A DNA stretch of 26,030 nucleotides, taken from positions 1 through 26,030 of the forward strand of contig JBKHVI010000042.1 of assembly GCA_046570105.1 (NCBI GenBank). Reading direction: 5' to 3'. A program made the translations under genes and the position numbers. The DNA is from Bacteriovoracia bacterium (GTDB taxonomy: Bacteria; Bdellovibrionota; Bacteriovoracia; Bacteriovoracales; Bacteriovoracaceae). Positions 1 through 26,030 of the stretch are shown piece by piece (positions within the stretch are counted from its first letter, which is position 1; each line of letters opens with the position of its first letter). A model generated the notes under the pieces. It searched no databases and was not told the DNA's origin. It was given only the letters and a program-made list of their open reading frames with translations.

Positions 1-906
1 GAGATGGACGCAAAGTCTGGACTCCTTCGTCGATACGATCCAACGACCATCATGGATATGGTGTCAGGACTCAGGCGCTGGACAAATGAGTGGCTGGAAA
101 TTCCTGGCGAGGAGTTGACTCGATTCCACGGAAGAGAGCTTCAAAAGAAAATGGAACTGGCCGGGATGAGTTCTAAAGGGCAACAGAAAGTACGAAGCAT
201 GGTAAATACTGTGTTCAATTATGGCCTAGAAGAAAAGTTTATCTCCAAACCAATTCCATCACCGATGGCGGGATTAATTTTTAATAGTGATGCTGAAAAA
301 GTCCCTGACATTCTAACCCTTGGAGAAATTAAACAGTTTCTTGAAAGAGGCAAAGAACTTCAGAATGAGTGGTATCCCATTTGGGCCATGGCGCTTCTGA
401 CAGGGATGAGAAACGGTGAGCTTTATGCGCTTGAATGGAGTGATGTGGATTTTGAAAATTCTCTCATTAGAGTTTCAAAGTCATATAATCCAAGGTTAAA
501 GATTGTTAAATCTACGAAGGCCGGTTACTGGCGAAATATTCCAATTTCAAGTCAGCTTAGGGAACTTTTAATTGAACTTCAGGCAAAGTCTGAAAATCAA
601 TTCGTGCTTCCACGTTTGAGTTGCTGGAATAAAGGTTTGCAAGCTCAGGAACTTCGAAAGTTTTTAAAAGGAATTGGCATCAGGCCTGTGAAGTTTCATG
701 CACTGAGGGCGTGCTTTGCAACACAATTACTTGCAAAAAATATCGCGCCGGCAATCGTGATGAAAATCTGTGGTTGGAAGAATCTAAAGACCATGGAATT
801 TTATGTCAGACTTGCGGGAGTGAGTGAGCAGGGAGCTACTGAGTGCTTAGAGATTTTGCCGACAGAAGTAGTAATGGAAAATGTAGTGAATTTATTCTCA
901 CATTAG
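1..906 (+). CDS. Tyrosine recombinase/phage-type integrase (probably 5'-truncated by the window edge; first ATG at 4)
   Basis: Catalytic motifs LLTGMRNGELYALEW (R), KSTKAG (K), FHALR (HxxR), ICGW (W at the second His position) and TMEFY (Y). The frame is open from base 1. Confidence 0.95.
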   Translation, partial: EMDAKSGLLRRYDPTTIMDMVSGLRRWTNEWLEIPGEELTRFHGRELQKKMELAGMSSKGQQKVRSMVNTVFNYGLEEKFISKPIPSPMAGLIFNSDAEKVPDILTLGEIKQFLERGKELQNEWYPIWAMALLTGMRNGELYALEWSDVDFENSLIRVSKSYNPRLKIVKSTKAGYWRNIPISSQLRELLIELQAKSENQFVLPRLSCWNKGLQAQELRKFLKGIGIRPVKFHALRACFATQLLAKNIAPAIVMKICGWKNLKTMEFYVRLAGVSEQGATECLEILPTEVVMENVVNLFSH

Positions 907-909
907 GAT

Positions 910-943
910 CAGGGGTACGGGAAACCGTGCCCCTGCTTTTTTT
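910..943 (+). terminator. Rho-independent terminator of the integrase
   Basis: CAGGGGTACGG-GAAA-CCGTGCCCCTG stem (one G-U pair) followed by C and T7. Confidence 0.9.
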
Positions 944-1007
944 GTGTCCAGAGATCTAACTTGCTGATAAGATTATATTATTACCCGACTAGGAATAATG
1001 TGTATGG

Positions 1008-1041
1008 TTGACGTAGGATCAAGAATTGATGTAACATCAAT
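1008..1041. promoter_or_regulatory. Tandem palindromic operators (TTGA-N7-TCAA x2) upstream of the TA operon
   Basis: TTGACGTAGGATCAA (1008-1022) and TTGATGTAACATCAA (1026-1040). The second extends to a perfect ATTGATGT-A-ACATCAAT and overlaps the ATG at 1040. The first begins with a -35-like TTGACG. Confidence 0.7.
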
Positions 1042-1315
1042 GTTAAGTTCAGGGCAGGCCAGGAAGGTTTTGTCTGAAATTTTTAATCAGAATCCCAATT
1101 TAATCTCCTTTTCTAAACACGCTTTAGAGGAGATGAAAAACGATAATTTAAAGACTGGTGATATTCTTAACGTGCTTAAAGCTGGGAAAATTTATGATGC
1201 ACCAGAATTTGAAAATGGAAGCTACCGCTACAGGATTCAAACTCAAAAAATCACAGTGGTAATTGCTTTTAGAAAACCTAATCATGTTGTCATTGTGACA
1301 GCTTGGAGAGAATAA
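1040..1315 (+). CDS. DUF4258-family protein, putative RelE/MqsR-like toxin (alternative start 998)
   Basis: Pattern FSKHALEEM...DILNVLKAGKI...YRYRI...VVIVTAW. Small basic protein ending 1 bp before an MqsA-like antitoxin. Confidence 0.8.
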   Translation: MLSSGQARKVLSEIFNQNPNLISFSKHALEEMKNDNLKTGDILNVLKAGKIYDAPEFENGSYRYRIQTQKITVVIAFRKPNHVVIVTAWRE

Positions 1316-1316
1316 A

Positions 1317-1814
1317 ATGAAATGTGTAATGTGCGGCTCCAAAATGACTGAGAATAAATCCGGACTTTTTTCTTATTCCAGCAGTGGTTTATCAAAGGTG
1401 TATTTGAAGGGAGTTCAGGTTCACAAATGTTCTAATAAAGAGTGCGGAGAAGAGGAAATTACAATTCCTAATATGGAAGAACTCCATGAGCTTTTAGCTG
1501 AAAATGTAGCGAAGCAAAATAATGTCCTTCAACCCGAGGAGATTCGTTTTCTAAGAACTCACCTGGGTTTCTCTGGAGCGGATTTTGCTAAAGTGATGGG
1601 TGTTAGTCCAGAAACAGTTTCTCGCTGGGAAAAAGGGACAGTAAATATGAAAGAGGCTTCTGAGCGGTTGCTTAGAGTGCTTGTCCTTTCAAAGCTTGGG
1701 CCTTTTAGAGAATACGAAGAGTTAAAAGTTTATGCTTCTAAAGCAAGCAAGACCTCAGTAAAAAGAGTCTTTGAATTAGAACGTTCTCATTGGCTAGAAG
1801 CGAAAGTCGCCTGA
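1317..1814 (+). CDS. MqsA/YgiT-family antitoxin (Zn-ribbon + XRE HTH)
   Basis: N-terminal CVMC...CSNKEC zinc ligands; HTH LQPEEIRFLRTHLGFSGADFAKVMGVSPETVSRWEKG. Confidence 0.88.
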   Translation: MKCVMCGSKMTENKSGLFSYSSSGLSKVYLKGVQVHKCSNKECGEEEITIPNMEELHELLAENVAKQNNVLQPEEIRFLRTHLGFSGADFAKVMGVSPETVSRWEKGTVNMKEASERLLRVLVLSKLGPFREYEELKVYASKASKTSVKRVFELERSHWLEAKVA

Positions 1815-1860
1815 TCTGGCTTACTCTGGCTTTTCAGTACACTAACTCATTAATAACTAA

Positions 1861-1888
1861 GGCGCATAAAAGTATGCGCCACTTTCCT
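1861..1888 (+). terminator. Hairpin, possible terminator after the TA operon
   Basis: GGCGCATA-AAAG-TATGCGCC perfect 8-bp stem with only a weak U-tract (ACTTTCCT). Confidence 0.5.
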
Positions 1889-2033
1889 TAATTCTTCGAG
1901 TTTTGTTTCATTTATAGAATATCCCTAACTGAACCCATTCTAATTCTATTCATCTTTTCTTGGTCGGCTTAAGTTTGCTTCCTTTTCAAGAGTCAGGCAC
2001 TCCCATCTTTTATTTACTGTGACTTAGCTCTTG

Positions 2034-2078
2034 TTGATATAAAAATCATTAATCGGTATAATGTAAACTAGGTTTACA
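2034..2078 (+). promoter_or_regulatory. Sigma70 promoter with overlapping palindromic operator
   Basis: TTGATA (2034-2039), 17 nt, TATAAT (2057-2062). TGTAAAC-TAG-GTTTACA (2062-2078) covers the predicted +1. Confidence 0.75.
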
Positions 2079-2112
2079 CCGATAAAAGGGTGTAGCTTGG
2101 CAGGGAGTGAAG

Positions 2113-2544
2113 ATGGAAACTAAAACAGTCATTAAGTATATCTATGAAGGACTCGGTTTCCCGGTTGAGCTACACCATGTCGTTTTGGTAAAAGTTGGTA
2201 AAGTTTGGGCCCCCAAGATCGATGTGAAAAAGGTCTCAAGCGACATACTTAAAGAGCTACCATTCCAAGCGACTCGTCTGACTGGAGCACAAATTCGCTT
2301 TATCCGTGAATATCTCGGAATGTCGCTTAGAGAATTTGCCACCAAAGTCGTTCATCAGTCTCACATGGCAGTCAGTAAGTGGGAGAAGTTTGATCAAAAA
2401 CCAACCAATATGGACGCGGCCACAGAGGTCATTCTGCGACTCTATGTTTTTCACGAGGTAATAGCAAAAAAACCGAATGTTGAAAAAAAGTTTATGAAAG
2501 CCTACGAAAAGATCAGTTCAATGCAGTTTGGGAAAATGCACTAA
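2113..2544 (+). CDS. XRE-HTH regulator, MqsA-like antitoxin paralogue lacking Zn cysteines (alternative GTG start 2107)
   Basis: LTGAQIRFIREYLGMSLREFA...SHMAVSKWEK HTH; collinear similarity to 1317-1814; GGAG RBS at 2104-2107. Confidence 0.85.
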   Translation: METKTVIKYIYEGLGFPVELHHVVLVKVGKVWAPKIDVKKVSSDILKELPFQATRLTGAQIRFIREYLGMSLREFATKVVHQSHMAVSKWEKFDQKPTNMDAATEVILRLYVFHEVIAKKPNVEKKFMKAYEKISSMQFGKMH

Positions 2545-20564: not shown

Positions 20565-20715
20565 TACAATTGATATTACACGAGCTTAACTCAGGGGACA
20601 CGGAAAAAAAGCATCTCCTATAACTCTAGCGCTGGTAGTTTTTACAGGATTTAGGGCCCACCTCCGGAGGCATGTTAGCCTTTTTGGCATCTGACAATGT
20701 TTTTTGGAGGTTCCT

Positions 20716-22008
20716 ATGTTTGGCCGCAGACTTATGTCTTGGGTTCTCACCCTCGCTATCATTCTTCCGATCCTGGTGAGCTGTAAAGATGATGGCAGTG
20801 ATCCTGAACTTACTCGTGAATTGAAGGCGCTCGCCGCTGATTCACGCCTAAGTGATGCTGGCAGAAAGGAAGCCCAAAATATCCTGAACCTTCATAAAGA
20901 AGTGCAAGAAACTATTCGCGCCAATCCCACTCTTAAGGCCCTTCCTAGAGAAGGCAAAGTTTTAAGTCATGAGAAAGCGCTTAAACTTCATTCTCAAAAC
21001 CAGGCAGAAACCATCAAGGTGCTTGAGGTACAAGACGCAGCTTTAAAGAAAATTGTCGATAATGTTAAAACCATTTCAAAACGCAAATTTACAGAAAGTC
21101 TTGATGCTGCTCAAACCGCCGAGTCTGAGACATTGGTACTGATGAATCTTTTAGTGGTTCGTCATGTGGCGCAGTCAGCTTCTCGTCGCATCCTTTTCTT
21201 GATGACAAAATTTGATAAGCCTTATTTTGATCAACTAGATGAGAATGCTGAAATGAAGCAGCGTTTGCTGGCCGACTACAGCAGTGCTCTAGCTGTTGCA
21301 GCAGTCAGTGCCAACGACCTTCGTACCACTTTGACTCAATTGCGCGAACTTCGTGAGGCCGGTGCCATCATTGAGCCACTAGAAATTGCTATTAATAAAG
21401 TGGTGAGTGGTTGCGGTGGTCATGAACGCTTAGATAAAAAGAATGTCGATGATTTCATGAAAGAGAGCCTAACAGACAAAGCCCAAGGCACAATGGATAA
21501 AGCGATGACTGATTATCATGGTTCATTGAAAGGAAAGACATTCTTGTTTGATCCAGCTCACCCAGATCATCCTTTGATGCATGTGTTGGTGATCGTTTCA
21601 AATCTTTCATGGGGTTTGGTCAATACACTCGTGGGCCTTGGTTTTGTTATCACTGCGGCGATTGTTGCTCCTATTACCCAAATTGCAGGAGCAGGCGTGA
21701 GAGCGATGGGTTATGAACCACTCTTCTATGAAATGCGCATGCCAAAACTTGCGATCGCTCAAAGTAATATGCAGATTTATGCTGATGTATGTGGGCTTGG
21801 CTTTATTCCAAGTAAGATGAGCGCGGGATTGTTTGAACTGGATTTCTGTACTGGACAGAGCTTTGCCAGTGATCATGAAGCCGGACACGCTAAGCAATCT
21901 GCGCTTTTGGGGCCACTTTATTTCCCAGCAGCAATTCTGAGTTACATGTTGAATATGGGCCATGGCGGATTTATCGAGGACTGGGCAGATGCTTGGGCAA
22001 CGACTTAA
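20716..22008 (+). CDS. Lipoprotein with helical N-terminal region and C-terminal HExxH metallopeptidase-like domain
   Basis: Lipobox ILVS-C; GGAGG RBS; SWGLVNTLVG...DHEAGHAKQSALLGPLY...EDWAD. Confidence 0.75.
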   Translation: MFGRRLMSWVLTLAIILPILVSCKDDGSDPELTRELKALAADSRLSDAGRKEAQNILNLHKEVQETIRANPTLKALPREGKVLSHEKALKLHSQNQAETIKVLEVQDAALKKIVDNVKTISKRKFTESLDAAQTAESETLVLMNLLVVRHVAQSASRRILFLMTKFDKPYFDQLDENAEMKQRLLADYSSALAVAAVSANDLRTTLTQLRELREAGAIIEPLEIAINKVVSGCGGHERLDKKNVDDFMKESLTDKAQGTMDKAMTDYHGSLKGKTFLFDPAHPDHPLMHVLVIVSNLSWGLVNTLVGLGFVITAAIVAPITQIAGAGVRAMGYEPLFYEMRMPKLAIAQSNMQIYADVCGLGFIPSKMSAGLFELDFCTGQSFASDHEAGHAKQSALLGPLYFPAAILSYMLNMGHGGFIEDWADAWATT

Positions 22009-22909
22009 TCTTATATTTTTAATCTTAGCAGGGCTGGTTCTCCAGTCCTGTGGCAAGCGCTCTCATCTTGAGGGCGCTCCGCATTTTATCGCCGGCCAAA
22101 TCTTAGTCGAAGGGGATGGGTCGGAACTTTCTGTCGATCGTCGCATGACTCGTACCTGGAAAGATTACGATGGCGATGGCATCTCGGATAGAAAAGATGC
22201 AGATATTGATAACGACGGTGTTCCCAATATCGTAGATCAGTATCCTTTTGATGGTACGAAATCAGGTGAAGACACTGACCTTGATGGAATTATGGATTTC
22301 GTCGATCTTGGTTTCCATAAAGATCCTAAGGCCCGTGCGCTCGCGAACCTTCAAGAAGAAATTTTTAAGAAACTTGGTGTGACCGTCGTGAACGGATCAG
22401 AGAATTTCACTGAAGATGAGTGGAAGGTCATGCATGAGACCCTCTTTCATGAGGTCATGCTATCGAAAGTGCGCTATATCGAACTTGTTACGATTGTTCG
22501 GTATTCAAAAGCAGATCAAATAGGTGAGACCCGTGCAGACTTTGATCCTTTTTGGTTACAAATTAGTTTTTATCCAAACTCTTCTCATCAAAATAATGTG
22601 ATGGCTTTTGCAGGAAGTTTAATTCATGAGCTAGGACATGTTCACGCTTATGAAAACCCAGATCAATTTCAAGAATTCGTTAAGCGATTGCACGTTAAGG
22701 AAATTGTTTATCCTAGTACTTATGCCAAGAGTTCTGAAGAAGAAGCTTATGCTGAGGTTTTTGCACTCGAATGCTATTTGGCAGGAATGAATTTAGATTC
22801 AACTCGATTTGATCTACTTAAGGAAGAGCGGCCAAGCTTGCATCCTTCCCTTGGGCCTTCAGTGCATGGTTCATATCGTTTACCGATGATTGAAACTCAC
22901 GGCGAATAA
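21989..22909 (+). CDS. Lipoprotein with TSP3-like Ca-binding repeats and zincin (HELGH) domain
   Basis: Lipobox VLQS-C; DYDGDGISD, DIDNDGVPN, DTDLDGIMD repeats; LIHELGH and STYAKSSEEEAYAE; GAGGA RBS before ATG 21989. Confidence 0.78.
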   Translation: MLGQRLNLIFLILAGLVLQSCGKRSHLEGAPHFIAGQILVEGDGSELSVDRRMTRTWKDYDGDGISDRKDADIDNDGVPNIVDQYPFDGTKSGEDTDLDGIMDFVDLGFHKDPKARALANLQEEIFKKLGVTVVNGSENFTEDEWKVMHETLFHEVMLSKVRYIELVTIVRYSKADQIGETRADFDPFWLQISFYPNSSHQNNVMAFAGSLIHELGHVHAYENPDQFQEFVKRLHVKEIVYPSTYAKSSEEEAYAEVFALECYLAGMNLDSTRFDLLKEERPSLHPSLGPSVHGSYRLPMIETHGE

Positions 22910-25097
22910 GGGCTTCTTGGGATTTGGTGATGCCTGGTGGCGCCACAAAATCAAGCCCCACGCCACCTTTGGCCGTCACACTTCCTCGCATATCCACAGC
23001 AAACAATGTTTGCTTCAACTGATCCTGGGAGAGCAGTCCCTCTAAGCGTTTGCGCAGAGTTTTCTCAATCCCTTCACCGATAGTAGATTGTACCGCTCGT
23101 TCTACATCATTCATCATCCCAGAAGGGAAAAAGCTCGTCCGCATACTTGAAGGAAGACCGGCACGTGCTTGTAGTTGCACAAGTTCGGCTTTCGCCGCAG
23201 CCGTGAGAGGTTTGTTGGGAACGACCAGCATGTCATCACCACTGATAGTGATTTCTGCATCGACACCATGTCGCTTAAGGGCCGCTCTGATGTTGGTTTG
23301 AGTTTTATCTTTGAGATCATCTAGCTGGCCTGTTACTACTCTCTCTTGCGTGCGAACTGCTACTACGGCATCCTCAAGACTTTTTCCTTTTGCTAGTCCC
23401 ATCGCTGTTGCTTCAGCGTTCTGAGAACCCACTCCCGCAAAATCAACCGTGAGTCCACCTTTTCGTGCTTTTTCAAAACGATGAGCAACTCGCTCTGGGA
23501 TCAAAAGCCCTGGTGAGAATTGATCAACTTGGGTGAAGTATTGTTTGAGGCGATGGGCATCTTGTTCATCAACTGTAATACCGAAGCGACGACTCAAGGT
23601 ACTCATTACTTCTTCAGGGCCGGTGCTTTTTCGCACGACTTCCATGACTTCGGCATTGGGAATAAATTTATTTGTTCCAGGAACTTGTTTCAACAGGCCT
23701 GAGCCCTTAAAGCGAGTGGCCAGGATACTACGTGTTTGTTCAGCTTCTTCCCAAGCTTTCAAAACACTGCCTCGTACATGAGGAAGATCAAAATTATCAA
23801 CTGTGCTGTCATTGGAGCGTCGAGAGAAACGAGTCACGAGATTGGCCTCATCAGCTGTTCGGCCTAGGCCCGCTCTAAACCACGGGGTTTGCATTTGTTC
23901 CGCTCTGACATAGCGACCTTGCAACATTTCTAATTGAAAGGCCTTATCATTTTCTGCCAAACGTTTTCCAAGTTCGGCCATGAGTTCATTTTCTTTCCCA
24001 GGAGGACCGCGGATGCCCGCTCGTAGTGATTTGTAGTCGGAGTAAAACTCAAGTTCTACATCAGGATATTTTTCTTTAAATTCTTCGATGACGGCTTTGA
24101 CGGATGCGTTGTAGCGATTTCCAAAAGCGTTGACGAGAGTTTTATCTTTCAAAGTATCGTTGAGAAATTTCAAAGCTGTATTCTGAGTATCAACAAAGAA
24201 GACTCCTGGGCGTTTCGTCTTCAGTGACATGGCAATCCAAGCTTTATTCTGCGTTGGAGTCGTGACCGCCACATCGGCCCATTTTTTGATGAACTCTTGA
24301 CGTGTGAGTGGAATGATTTTAGTTGGTGGGGGATTGGCTTTTATTTGGTGGGGGGCACTATTTTTAGTTACTTTTTCTGTTATCTTGCTCGTTGTTTCAC
24401 TGAGTTTACCGAGACCTTTGGCCTTTAAAATTAAAGTGATCTTAGTGGCGGGTATAAAAATACCTGCTACCACAGCACATACATGAGCATCTTGGGCTTC
24501 AGGTTTGAGGCAGTCCCAATAGGCCACTTGTCTCTCAGCTTCTGCACGGGCCGCTCCCATCAAGTACTGGAGAGCTTTTTTTGAGACATCGATACCTTTA
24601 GAAACTCCTTCAGAAAATTCTTCTACTGTCTTTTTGCGGCACTCAACAGACTGGAGACATTTATGAGTCTCTTCAGCGATTTGTTTTGAGCGGCGATAAT
24701 TGGTACTGAACATTTCACCAATTTCTTCGGGAGGAGTGTTCTTGGCCCATGTGTAGGCGGTTACGATACTGTTGATGCCTGTCTCTCCTAAAGCACCGAT
24801 GAGATCTACGATATCGGTGGCAAACATTAAGGCACAGTAAAGTTCACCTTTTGGAGTCACTGGATTGAGGACATATTTTTCAAGAAAACTTGGTTCAGAA
24901 CAGCTGCGCATGTAGAGATTTTTTTCAAAATCACGCTTGAAGTGCTGGTGACACTCTTCACGCAATTGTAGTTCGCAGCTGATTCTTTCAAGTTCTTTGC
25001 CGTTTTCACCTAGTGGATCTGGAATACAATCACAAACGGCCCAGCTTTGCTGGGAGAAAAGAGTGAGAAATAAGACGAGAATTAAGCGGTAATTCAC
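22818..25097 (-). CDS. Large secreted protein: Cys-rich N-terminus, hydrophobic linker, putative twin-palm (GGDEF/Cas10-like) C-terminal region
   Basis: 759-aa ORF; signal peptide ending SQQSWA; motifs LKFLND, YSDYKS, VDFAGVG, ISGDDMLVV. Confidence 0.7.
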   Translation of the reverse strand: MNYRLILVLFLTLFSQQSWAVCDCIPDPLGENGKELERISCELQLREECHQHFKRDFEKNLYMRSCSEPSFLEKYVLNPVTPKGELYCALMFATDIVDLIGALGETGINSIVTAYTWAKNTPPEEIGEMFSTNYRRSKQIAEETHKCLQSVECRKKTVEEFSEGVSKGIDVSKKALQYLMGAARAEAERQVAYWDCLKPEAQDAHVCAVVAGIFIPATKITLILKAKGLGKLSETTSKITEKVTKNSAPHQIKANPPPTKIIPLTRQEFIKKWADVAVTTPTQNKAWIAMSLKTKRPGVFFVDTQNTALKFLNDTLKDKTLVNAFGNRYNASVKAVIEEFKEKYPDVELEFYSDYKSLRAGIRGPPGKENELMAELGKRLAENDKAFQLEMLQGRYVRAEQMQTPWFRAGLGRTADEANLVTRFSRRSNDSTVDNFDLPHVRGSVLKAWEEAEQTRSILATRFKGSGLLKQVPGTNKFIPNAEVMEVVRKSTGPEEVMSTLSRRFGITVDEQDAHRLKQYFTQVDQFSPGLLIPERVAHRFEKARKGGLTVDFAGVGSQNAEATAMGLAKGKSLEDAVVAVRTQERVVTGQLDDLKDKTQTNIRAALKRHGVDAEITISGDDMLVVPNKPLTAAAKAELVQLQARAGLPSSMRTSFFPSGMMNDVERAVQSTIGEGIEKTLRKRLEGLLSQDQLKQTLFAVDMRGSVTAKGGVGLDFVAPPGITKSQEALIRREFQSSVNDMNHALKAQGKDASLAALP

Positions 25098-25170: not shown

Positions 25171-25196
25171 AGAAAGGGCCCGCATGGTGCGGGCCC
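25171..25196 (-). terminator. Terminator of the 25227-25796 gene
   Basis: GGGCCCGCA-3 nt-TGCGGGCCC stem; the minus strand continues TTTCT. Confidence 0.75.
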
Positions 25197-25226: not shown

Positions 25227-25796
25227 TTACTTTGTAGAAACAGTTACTTCGCGAACAGTTGTTTGAGCTGGCTTGTAAACGATGTTCTCAACGCAACCTG
25301 GAGCGATATCGCCAGATTCCATAACTTGGCAGATTGTAGAGTTACGAACGTCAACAACTTGGATTGTGCGAGCAGCAAGCTTAGTGCTCAAAGAGAAGTT
25401 GTTACGAGCGAAAGCTTTACGAACTGAACCGCCGCCAAGGCGCCACATTGGAGAAGCGTTCTTCAAAGAAGCAACAGCGTCAGCGTTGAACTCAGAAACT
25501 TCGAAGTTGAAAGTAAGGTAAGACTGAGCAGCTTCTGGATCACGGAAAACGCCTTCAGTGTAATCAACAAAAACTTGAACCATTGGCTTAGACTCAAGAA
25601 CTACAACTTCTGTACATGGGTAATCAGTTTCCATGTTGCAGTGAGGAAGTTCGCGGATTTCAGTTTTAGTAGGGATGAGGCTGTATACAGCTTGGTCCAT
25701 TTTGAAACCAGAGTGAGCAGCAGCAACGTCTACAGACTGAGTAGCAGCGAAAGCAGAGCTAGATACCAAAGCAAGGGCAAGAGCTAACAATTTCAT
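25227..25796 (-). CDS. Secreted beta-rich hypothetical protein
   Basis: Signal MKLLALALALVSSSAFA; AAGGAG RBS before ATG 25796; two Cys pairs. Confidence 0.85.
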   Translation of the reverse strand: MKLLALALALVSSSAFAATQSVDVAAAHSGFKMDQAVYSLIPTKTEIRELPHCNMETDYPCTEVVVLESKPMVQVFVDYTEGVFRDPEAAQSYLTFNFEVSEFNADAVASLKNASPMWRLGGGSVRKAFARNNFSLSTKLAARTIQVVDVRNSTICQVMESGDIAPGCVENIVYKPAQTTVREVTVSTK

Positions 25797-26030
25797 AAAG
25801 ACTCCTTCAAGGTTAATAAAACACACAAAAGTTAATAAAAAGTACAACTATCTGAAACAACTAGTTTTTCAAGGCAAACAACTTCACAAGATGGATGGAG
25901 AATATTTCACAAAAACCGAGTTGAATAGTTCACTTTTGAAACACGAAGAGTTTCTTTTCACGGGCCGTGAACACAGTGCGCAAGTGATGAGAATGAATCA
26001 AGAAGGAGGGTGAAAAATGAGTGTGAAAAA

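Follow-up and report, generated by a model that had tools for sequence, protein, structure and literature searches.

A predicted twin-palm protein of a Bacteriovoracia bacterium, its unannotated family and its probable export

Palm-fold nucleotide cyclases (GGDEF, Cas10 and mCpol) are, to our knowledge, enzymes that act inside the cell producing them. Does a gene of a Bacteriovoracia bacterium put this fold to use elsewhere? The gene lies at 22818..25097 on the minus strand of contig JBKHVI010000042.1 (assembly GCA_046570105.1), of which positions 1 to 26,030, referred to as the window, were analyzed. It starts with GTG, stays open for 759 codons and encodes a protein of 759 amino acids, referred to as the palm protein. 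An initial annotation had proposed an exported nucleotidyltransferase with two palm domains. We find that the C-terminal part of the protein is, with near certainty, a predicted twin palm whose second palm retains an intact active site. The explanation that we favor, tentatively, is an exported nucleotidyltransferase, independent of CRISPR, that would act in prey and join two nucleoside triphosphates (NTPs) into short linear or cyclic oligonucleotides.

Predicted fold and active site of the palm protein

AlphaFold modeled residues 260–759 with a predicted local distance difference test (pLDDT) score of 93.9 and a predicted template modeling (pTM) score of 0.90, and residues 535–759 with a pLDDT of 96.6. 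The models match GGDEF, mCpol, adenylyl cyclase and Cas10 structures, in keeping with the two palms proposed initially; fold matches differing by less than 1 Z were treated as ties. The first palm (Palm1; residues 275–437, 23787..24275, on the minus strand like all features of the gene) showed a GGDEF-like fold with a predicted non-catalytic NTP site. Its match to the GGDEF protein LapD reached Z 14.3 with a root-mean-square deviation (rmsd) of 2.7 over 144 aligned residues, within a range of Z 12–14 for GGDEF folds overall; uridylate cyclase scored 11.0 and the mCpol protein OptS 10.8. The predicted catalytic palm (Palm2; residues 535–714, 22956..23495) matched OptS (PDB code: 9mnr) at Z 10.6 and rmsd 2.3, with 116 of 119 residues aligned, followed by GGDEF proteins (10.2), adenylyl cyclases (9.6), Cas10 (8.6) and guanosine triphosphate (GTP) cyclohydrolase III (8.2; rmsd 3.3, 121 aligned). 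When the whole domain was searched with Foldseek, Cas10/Cmr2 and human soluble adenylyl cyclase led, weakly (E 5e-4 to 2e-3). The palms are separated by a helical region (residues 438–534, 23496..23786) with conserved R456, R489, K490, Y520, D525 and an FSPG motif, which by itself yielded no fold match. Weak covariation between the palms (K317–G676, z 5.8; D416–R582, z 4.7; 156 sequences) gives a hint of a pseudo-symmetric palm pair.

Conservation was counted in 186 family sequences. In Palm2, the listed site residues are D552, N560, T589, SGDD at 619–622, R653, E675, E678, K679 and R682. D552 and R653 were invariant, and G620, D621, D622, E675, E678 and K679 were 99% conserved; the acidic residues D552, D621 and D622, for which conservation had been in question, thus stand at 99–100%. 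D552 (codon 23442..23444) is the predicted first metal ligand and falls on OptS D6 in the aligned range, provided that the first strand is ungapped; in OptS the metals are held by the catalytic residues D6 and D57 (PMC12657218). The predicted catalytic hairpin SGDD occupies 23232..23243, the S619 codon starting at 23243 and the D622 codon ending at 23232. Hairpin motifs of the family are YSD[FY]KS in Palm1 and xSGDDx in Palm2, the first position of SGDD being S or T, not G.

Palm1 site residues were listed as Q305, K310, N313, D314, N327, D354, K356, R423 and R426, of which N313, D354 and K356 were 99% and K310 96% conserved. Position 303 was D in 72% and E in 16% of sequences, whereas at position 305 E accounted for 70% and Q, the residue of the window protein, for 26%. 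The initial annotation had read this segment as resembling a GGDEF helix. The spacing from K310 to N313 bore this out, whereas D303 does not fall on the predicted first-strand acid position: the OptS-based register leads to residue 305, two positions further on, and the spacing 305/310/313/314 is the D/K/N/D spacing of GGDEF sequences. In EiCsm1, the triphosphate of the second NTP is bound by Palm1 residues Asp256, Lys382 and Lys385, and Palm2 uses Asp530, Asp584 and Lys648 (PMC11734703). The last helix of each palm here carries a basic i,i+3 pair, R423/R426 in Palm1 and K679/R682 in Palm2; these pairs resemble EiCsm1 Lys382/Lys385 and Lys648, an equivalence suggested by spacing, not by coordinates. 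By this analogy Palm1 looks like the non-catalytic donor site of Cas10. The matched site spacing and the basic pairs in both palms favor two NTP sites and condensation chemistry, so that NTP condensation is the probable reaction, most likely with adenine or purine substrates.

How does this arrangement compare with known systems? Like Cas10 (Csm1/Cmr2), the models have two palms per chain in the same order, a Palm2 with an xGDD hairpin and an upstream Asp, here SGDD and D552, and a Palm1 that is predicted to be non-catalytic and bears basic residues spaced i,i+3. Unlike Cas10, the palm protein lacks an HD domain, a D4 domain and zinc-finger Cys, and its N-terminus is a signal peptide followed by a swappable carrier; Cas10 models matched it at noise only. 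OptS, of the Panoptes antiphage system (PDB code: 9mnr; PMC12657218), is likewise CRISPR-independent and offers the best Palm2 match, a good Palm1 match and a catalytic Asp in register. However, it is a single, oligomerizing palm of ~120 amino acids encoded beside the effector gene optE, whereas the palm family has two unequal fused palms, is predicted to be exported and has no conserved partner gene. With GGDEF cyclases (PleD, WspR and LapD; DgcB and Bd0367 of Bdellovibrio) the protein shares the full GGDEF fold in Palm1 and the D/E..K..ND spacing. It has no GG(D/E)EF motif and no Pfam match, and for 46 members of its family PF00990 was missing from the 25 families listed. The catalytic domains of GGDEF proteins are cytoplasmic homodimers. 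Class III adenylyl cyclases built as C1/C2 pseudo-heterodimers (human sAC, AC9) also divide labor between two palms in one chain, but in this fold-level comparison each palm scored a lower Z with them than with GGDEF or mCpol. Judged by the features tested, the palm protein falls outside Cas10, mCpol and GGDEF, and by analogy its working mode is most likely that of a Cas10 Palm1–Palm2 module or of a fused, unequal OptS dimer.

The family, its carriers and its predicted export

Searches of Pfam, NCBIfam and PDB sequences gave no match to the palm protein, PADLOC returned noise only, and the ESM Atlas held no usable match. Distribution was counted in genomes sampled within this phylum. With the C-terminal ~500 amino acids (residues 260–759) as the query, 43 proteins matched, and 114 of 401 genomes were positive; the names displayed for four of the 43 JGI matches were all 'hypothetical protein'. 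A later profile built from 46 family sequences detected the family in 128 of the 401 genomes, nearly all with one copy each, and gathered 644 clusters at 50% identity, among which 507 had E below 1e-30. The spread is patchy: 41 of 100 genomes of the bacterium's own family, 33 of 53 of another family, and 0 of 20 and 0 of 17 of two others. By these searches the C-terminal ~500 amino acids constitute an unannotated protein family. One search pattern found no family relative in viral contigs, and a search of viral folds turned up no match with an E-value of 0.001 or lower. A literature search, with the original mCpol paper outside its scope, found no published account of the family or of Bd1312 (see below) in the texts as available; the available parts of PMC3239186, PMC12419801 and bioRxiv 2023.11.21.568195 contain nothing about the family, and the PMC11003981 supplements yielded no matches for it.

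Comparison with a relative in a Bacteriovoracaceae metagenome-assembled genome (locus L001) gave proportions of nonsynonymous differences (pN) of 0.03–0.09 in the carrier and the palms and 0.33 in the linker, which evolves fast (residues 231–265, 24303..24407), against proportions of synonymous differences (pS) of 0.67–0.78. The palm ORF (open reading frame) is a real gene under strong purifying selection.

Among unusual members, the distant L152, L153 and L154 have GDE or GDN in place of GDD and a degenerate Palm1 and keep signal-like N-termini. G007:C43 and G397:C31 each contain one in-frame stop within the palm match and are broken genes or split forms. Two very long members, L040:3556-10812 (2418 amino acids) and L051:4414-9237 (1607 amino acids), appear by eye to carry extra ADP-ribosyltransferase-like and kinase-like segments; Pfam found nothing in P0155 and P0123, which are similar to them, and a single weak match in 27 long or multi-domain members.

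The N-terminal part of the palm protein begins with a predicted Sec signal peptide (residues 1–20, 25038..25097; sequence and hydropathy heuristic only), whose hydrophobic stretch ends in SQQSWA. A Cys-rich carrier of type I follows (residues 21–230, 24408..25037), with ten Cys and eight invariant columns, six of which are Cys; all ten Cys lie within residues 22–207, with none after. Near its end are a hydrophobic helix (residues 206–224, 24426..24482; Kyte–Doolittle hydropathy 2.19, marginal as a transmembrane helix) and a basic KAKGLGK segment. The chain stops 45 amino acids beyond Palm2. The ORF, the signal-like N-terminus, the confinement of Cys and the hydrophobic-basic segment at 206–230 all stand where the initial annotation had put them, as do D303, K310, YSDYKS (with D354), D552 and SGDD.

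The suggestion that this N-terminus might be found with other C-termini was borne out. The N-termini of 162 long members fell into 13 BLAST clusters, and the tree, with 139 labelled leaves, implied at least 28 changes among seven labelled N-terminal types, a count made without a shuffle control and with deep nodes unverified. The type I carrier was present in 86 of the 401 genomes. From 40 loci with this carrier outside the palm gene, sampled mostly by E-value, we obtained 41 carrier ORFs, none with a palm domain, that formed 21 cargo groups. Five of them were above the Pfam cut-off (a glutamine deamidase, a peptide deformylase, two PI3/4-kinase-like proteins and one repeat family), five gave weaker matches including a Scabin-like one, and 31 had none at E 0.01. 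Kinases and deformylases require cytoplasmic substrates, which suggests delivery into a cytoplasm. The type I carrier is thus a candidate for an undescribed delivery system, as judged from sequence. In loci L109–L148, 10 of the 41 carrier ORFs continue into a common unnamed domain with the pattern AH.VG...Y...K..IL..AGF. The genome to which the window belongs, G000 (88% complete), also has four ORFs with other carrier types of the family (C87:1008-3605, C32:21201-23045, C55:13597-16089 and C3:5584-7698; L054–L056), with carrier E-values of 3e-47, 2e-10, 2e-20 and 7e-4; they have a signal peptide or are Cys-rich, and their C-termini differ, one being kinase-like and one containing an HHSSFLSG motif (by eye; no Pfam match).

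The combination of a trafficking N-terminus and interchangeable enzymatic C-termini recalls polymorphic toxin systems (PMC3482391); the first 300,000 characters of that survey make no mention of Bdellovibrio, GGDEF or a CRISPR polymerase. Unlike those systems, the palm genes have no adjacent conserved immunity gene, and the palm cargo also occurs bare behind a signal peptide.

A signal-like hydrophobic region was found in 141 of 184 members by a crude hydropathy rule, applied where 35 or more residues precede the domain. Members with at most 140 residues ahead of the domain, consisting of signal peptide and enzyme only, passed in 16 of 22 cases; as they are too short there to hold a second membrane helix, the palm domain itself would cross the inner membrane. 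Further indications come from Cys618 and Cys623, which flank GDD: of 186 sequences, 101 have both, 84 neither and one a single Cys, although kinship inflates this coupling. The pair, absent from the window protein (equivalent positions 23229-23246), was the top covarying pair of the family (z 12.4), and its state switches at least nine times on a FastTree tree (156 leaves). Such coupled gain and loss fits a disulfide and hence an oxidizing compartment, where the pair would be a possible structural disulfide or redox lock. By a crude insertion score, a rough home-made measure, the window helix 206–224 reached +0.9, whereas two membrane proteins of the window scored −3.4 to −3.9 in their best helices; none of 69 type I carriers had a negative (favorable) score, the median being +3.6. 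Of 22 members with type III carriers, 18 contain membrane-grade segments and all contain the catalytic-hairpin Cys pair. Together, these sequence patterns make it very likely that the protein crosses the predator's inner membrane. A lone early Cys after the signal peptide, considered as a general sorting motif, showed no enrichment in G000 (10 versus 15 in a control interval, 378 proteins).

Genomic context and the probable HD100 counterpart

Across the window and 50 loci, 30 of which had flanks of just 1.5 kb, no cluster of neighboring genes occurred in more than nine loci, which agrees with the early remark that no obvious immunity gene is present. Neighbors in common reflected genus-level housekeeping synteny, e.g., TolC-type, Dus and EVE genes. 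No cas genes were found around the palm gene or in G000, as first noted for the window: Cas10 palm2, RAMP, Cas1 and mCpol gave no match in this genome, and its two PF00990 genes lie away from the palm gene.

In the window, the palm gene overlaps a convergent ORF (21962-22909) by 92 nucleotides. This is the second of two lipoprotein-like ORFs at 20704-22909 (plus strand) and has thrombospondin type 3 repeats below cut-off and a HELGH motif. Upstream, 25227-25847 (minus strand) encodes a secreted protein of no known family that also lies upstream in the same-genus locus L003. A terminator-like hairpin of nine pairs, eight of them GC, closes this upstream gene at 25176..25196 (minus strand; consensus match only, six such sites being found versus 5.5 expected by chance); because it ends the upstream gene, the palm gene is probably transcribed separately. 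No sigma-70-like promoter was found upstream of the palm gene. RNA contigs from four of 21 listed metatranscriptome runs cover the upstream gene only and are uninformative on palm gene expression. At 4-2544 (plus strand), a tyrosine-recombinase-like ORF is followed by a small toxin–antitoxin-like pair and a helix-turn-helix gene (labels by eye), a group that may be a mobile-element remnant.

In several loci, the gene order is methyltransferase, palm gene, sometimes an ORF of 286 amino acids, Dus and EVE. B. bacteriovorus HD100 has a parallel order: Bd1311 (methyltransferase), Bd1312 (hypothetical, 2280 bp), Bd1313 (858 bp), Bd1314 (Dus) and Bd1315 (EVE) (PMC3627812, PMC2797640, PMC12546842). 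Because of this parallel, and by gene order only, Bd1312 is probably the HD100 counterpart of the palm gene.

Possible mechanism, alternatives and significance

Under the exported nucleotidyltransferase reading, the architecture and Cys patterns suggest that the protein would be exported by Sec and folded with disulfides in the predator periplasm. The other cargoes of the carrier suggest that the Cys-rich carrier and its hydrophobic helix may carry the cargo as far as the prey inner membrane or through it. Fold and residue spacing would then have Palm2 bind one NTP with two metals at D552/D621, and Palm1 hold the second through Q/E305, K310, N313 and R423/R426, as in the two pockets of Cas10. 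Turnover might, speculatively, drain prey NTPs or jam prey nucleotide signaling. During predation, prey transcription stops at 20–25 min with the prey inner membrane intact, and further effectors are expected (PMC13689555); the Sec system has been implicated in enzyme secretion into prey (PMC2797640).

Several observations weigh against this reading. Periplasms contain little NTP, and we know of no route into the prey cytoplasm. The single-copy, widespread pattern of the family is unlike that of typical, sporadic toxins. The signal heuristic failed in 43 of the 184 members, many apparently owing to wrong starts. Whole-domain template modeling (TM) scores to Cas10 and adenylyl cyclase were just about 0.25, and two-palm superpositions gave rmsd values of 6.2–7.6, while a GGDEF-EAL protein extended equally by chance (256 residues, rmsd 6.7); as these superpositions are non-specific, a composite site between facing palms stays a prediction. 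No sequence-level link to Cas10, GGDEF or mCpol was found: the mCpol model matched one of 46 members (E 0.02), and the profile–profile probability to GGDEF was at most 9%, near noise (GGDEF alignment of 20 sequences, loci L057–L078). In HD100, Bd1312 was not induced 30 min into predation (1.1-fold), fell to 0.26–0.30-fold in host-independent growth, was weakly transcribed (1.3 reads per kilobase per million in attack phase against 21 in growth phase, under the source study's expression flag) and is missing from one proteome table. Such expression counts against an early killing factor and would match a role that is low-level or comes later.

Could the protein be exported and yet remain outside any cytoplasm? 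It would then process released prey nucleotides in the predator's periplasm or the bdelloplast space for salvage or local signaling, whether as an NTP pyrophosphatase, by hydrolysis in the manner of GTP cyclohydrolase III or by running condensation backwards. The short members without carrier or membrane-active helix and the coupled Cys pair suit such a location, GTP cyclohydrolase III has the palm as well (Z 8.2), and Bd1312, whose orthology rests on gene order only, reaches in growth phase about 12-fold its attack-phase level; uptake of ATP and nucleoside monophosphates by Bdellovibrio is indicated by titles in a review's reference list. We nevertheless consider it unlikely, as the carriers of long members also bear cargoes needing cytoplasmic substrates, and two conserved triphosphate-type basic pairs would suit condensation better than simple hydrolysis. 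Quite unlikely is a single-pass receptor of the predator's own, with a periplasmic disulfide-rich sensor, a transmembrane helix at 206–224 and a cytoplasmic twin-palm cyclase making its own second messenger. This topology, which the initial annotation had not raised, suits the window protein taken singly: all ten Cys precede the hydrophobic helix and basic residues follow it. In addition, 18 of 22 type III carriers have membrane-grade segments, there is one copy per genome, and ATP-dependent cargoes would find substrate at hand. However, none of the 69 type I carriers reaches a negative insertion score, a second hydrophobic segment is missing from short members, and the Cys pair at the catalytic hairpin is present in all 22 type III members.

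The remaining alternatives concern chemistry. An effector of Thg1-like or MenT-like type would add nucleotides to the ends of prey RNA or tRNA. Thg1 belongs to the wider family of palm-fold enzymes, and Cas10 elongates 3'–5' like Thg1; the conserved basic R456, R489, K490 and R536, cited for the inter-palm helical region, would also fit, as would YSD[FY]K, which we take to resemble a Thg1 motif. With the acidic metal pair in Palm2 rather than at YSD, and no Thg1 chain among the 50 best fold matches per search (not an exclusion), we regard this as decidedly unlikely. A single-chain class III-type mononucleotide cyclase producing cAMP, cGMP or cUMP from one active and one helper palm appears very unlikely: human soluble adenylyl cyclase is among the top Foldseek matches and adenylyl and uridylate cyclases score Z 9–11, but GGDEF and mCpol score equally or higher per palm, Palm1 retains the GGDEF-type K..ND spacing and GDD is a hairpin of Cas10/mCpol type. 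The complete acidic metal set of Palm2, 99–100% conserved, makes a nucleotide-binding sponge or sensor without meaningful turnover highly improbable, even though the closest Palm1 match, LapD, is a degenerate GGDEF receptor.

Beyond the exported nucleotidyltransferase itself, a broader and rather doubtful proposal is that Bdellovibrio-like predators possess many undescribed effectors that are exported by Sec and mounted on Cys-rich carriers. Its most conserved cargo would be a stand-alone, Cas10-like twin-palm enzyme that enters prey, makes cyclic oligonucleotides and drains NTPs or hijacks or decoys prey nucleotide signaling, possibly disulfide-locked at the hairpin until it meets a reducing cytoplasm.

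If its predicted export is true, this family, which numbers at least 644 clusters and has been retained by many predatory lineages, would put the palm fold to a new use. It bears on how Bdellovibrio-like predators shut down and consume the prey cytoplasm from the periplasm, and the cargoes of the carrier family provide a list of candidate predation effectors. HD100 is genetically tractable, and its probable counterpart Bd1312, assigned from gene order, opens the palm family to genetic study, and the enzyme may make a new nucleotide.

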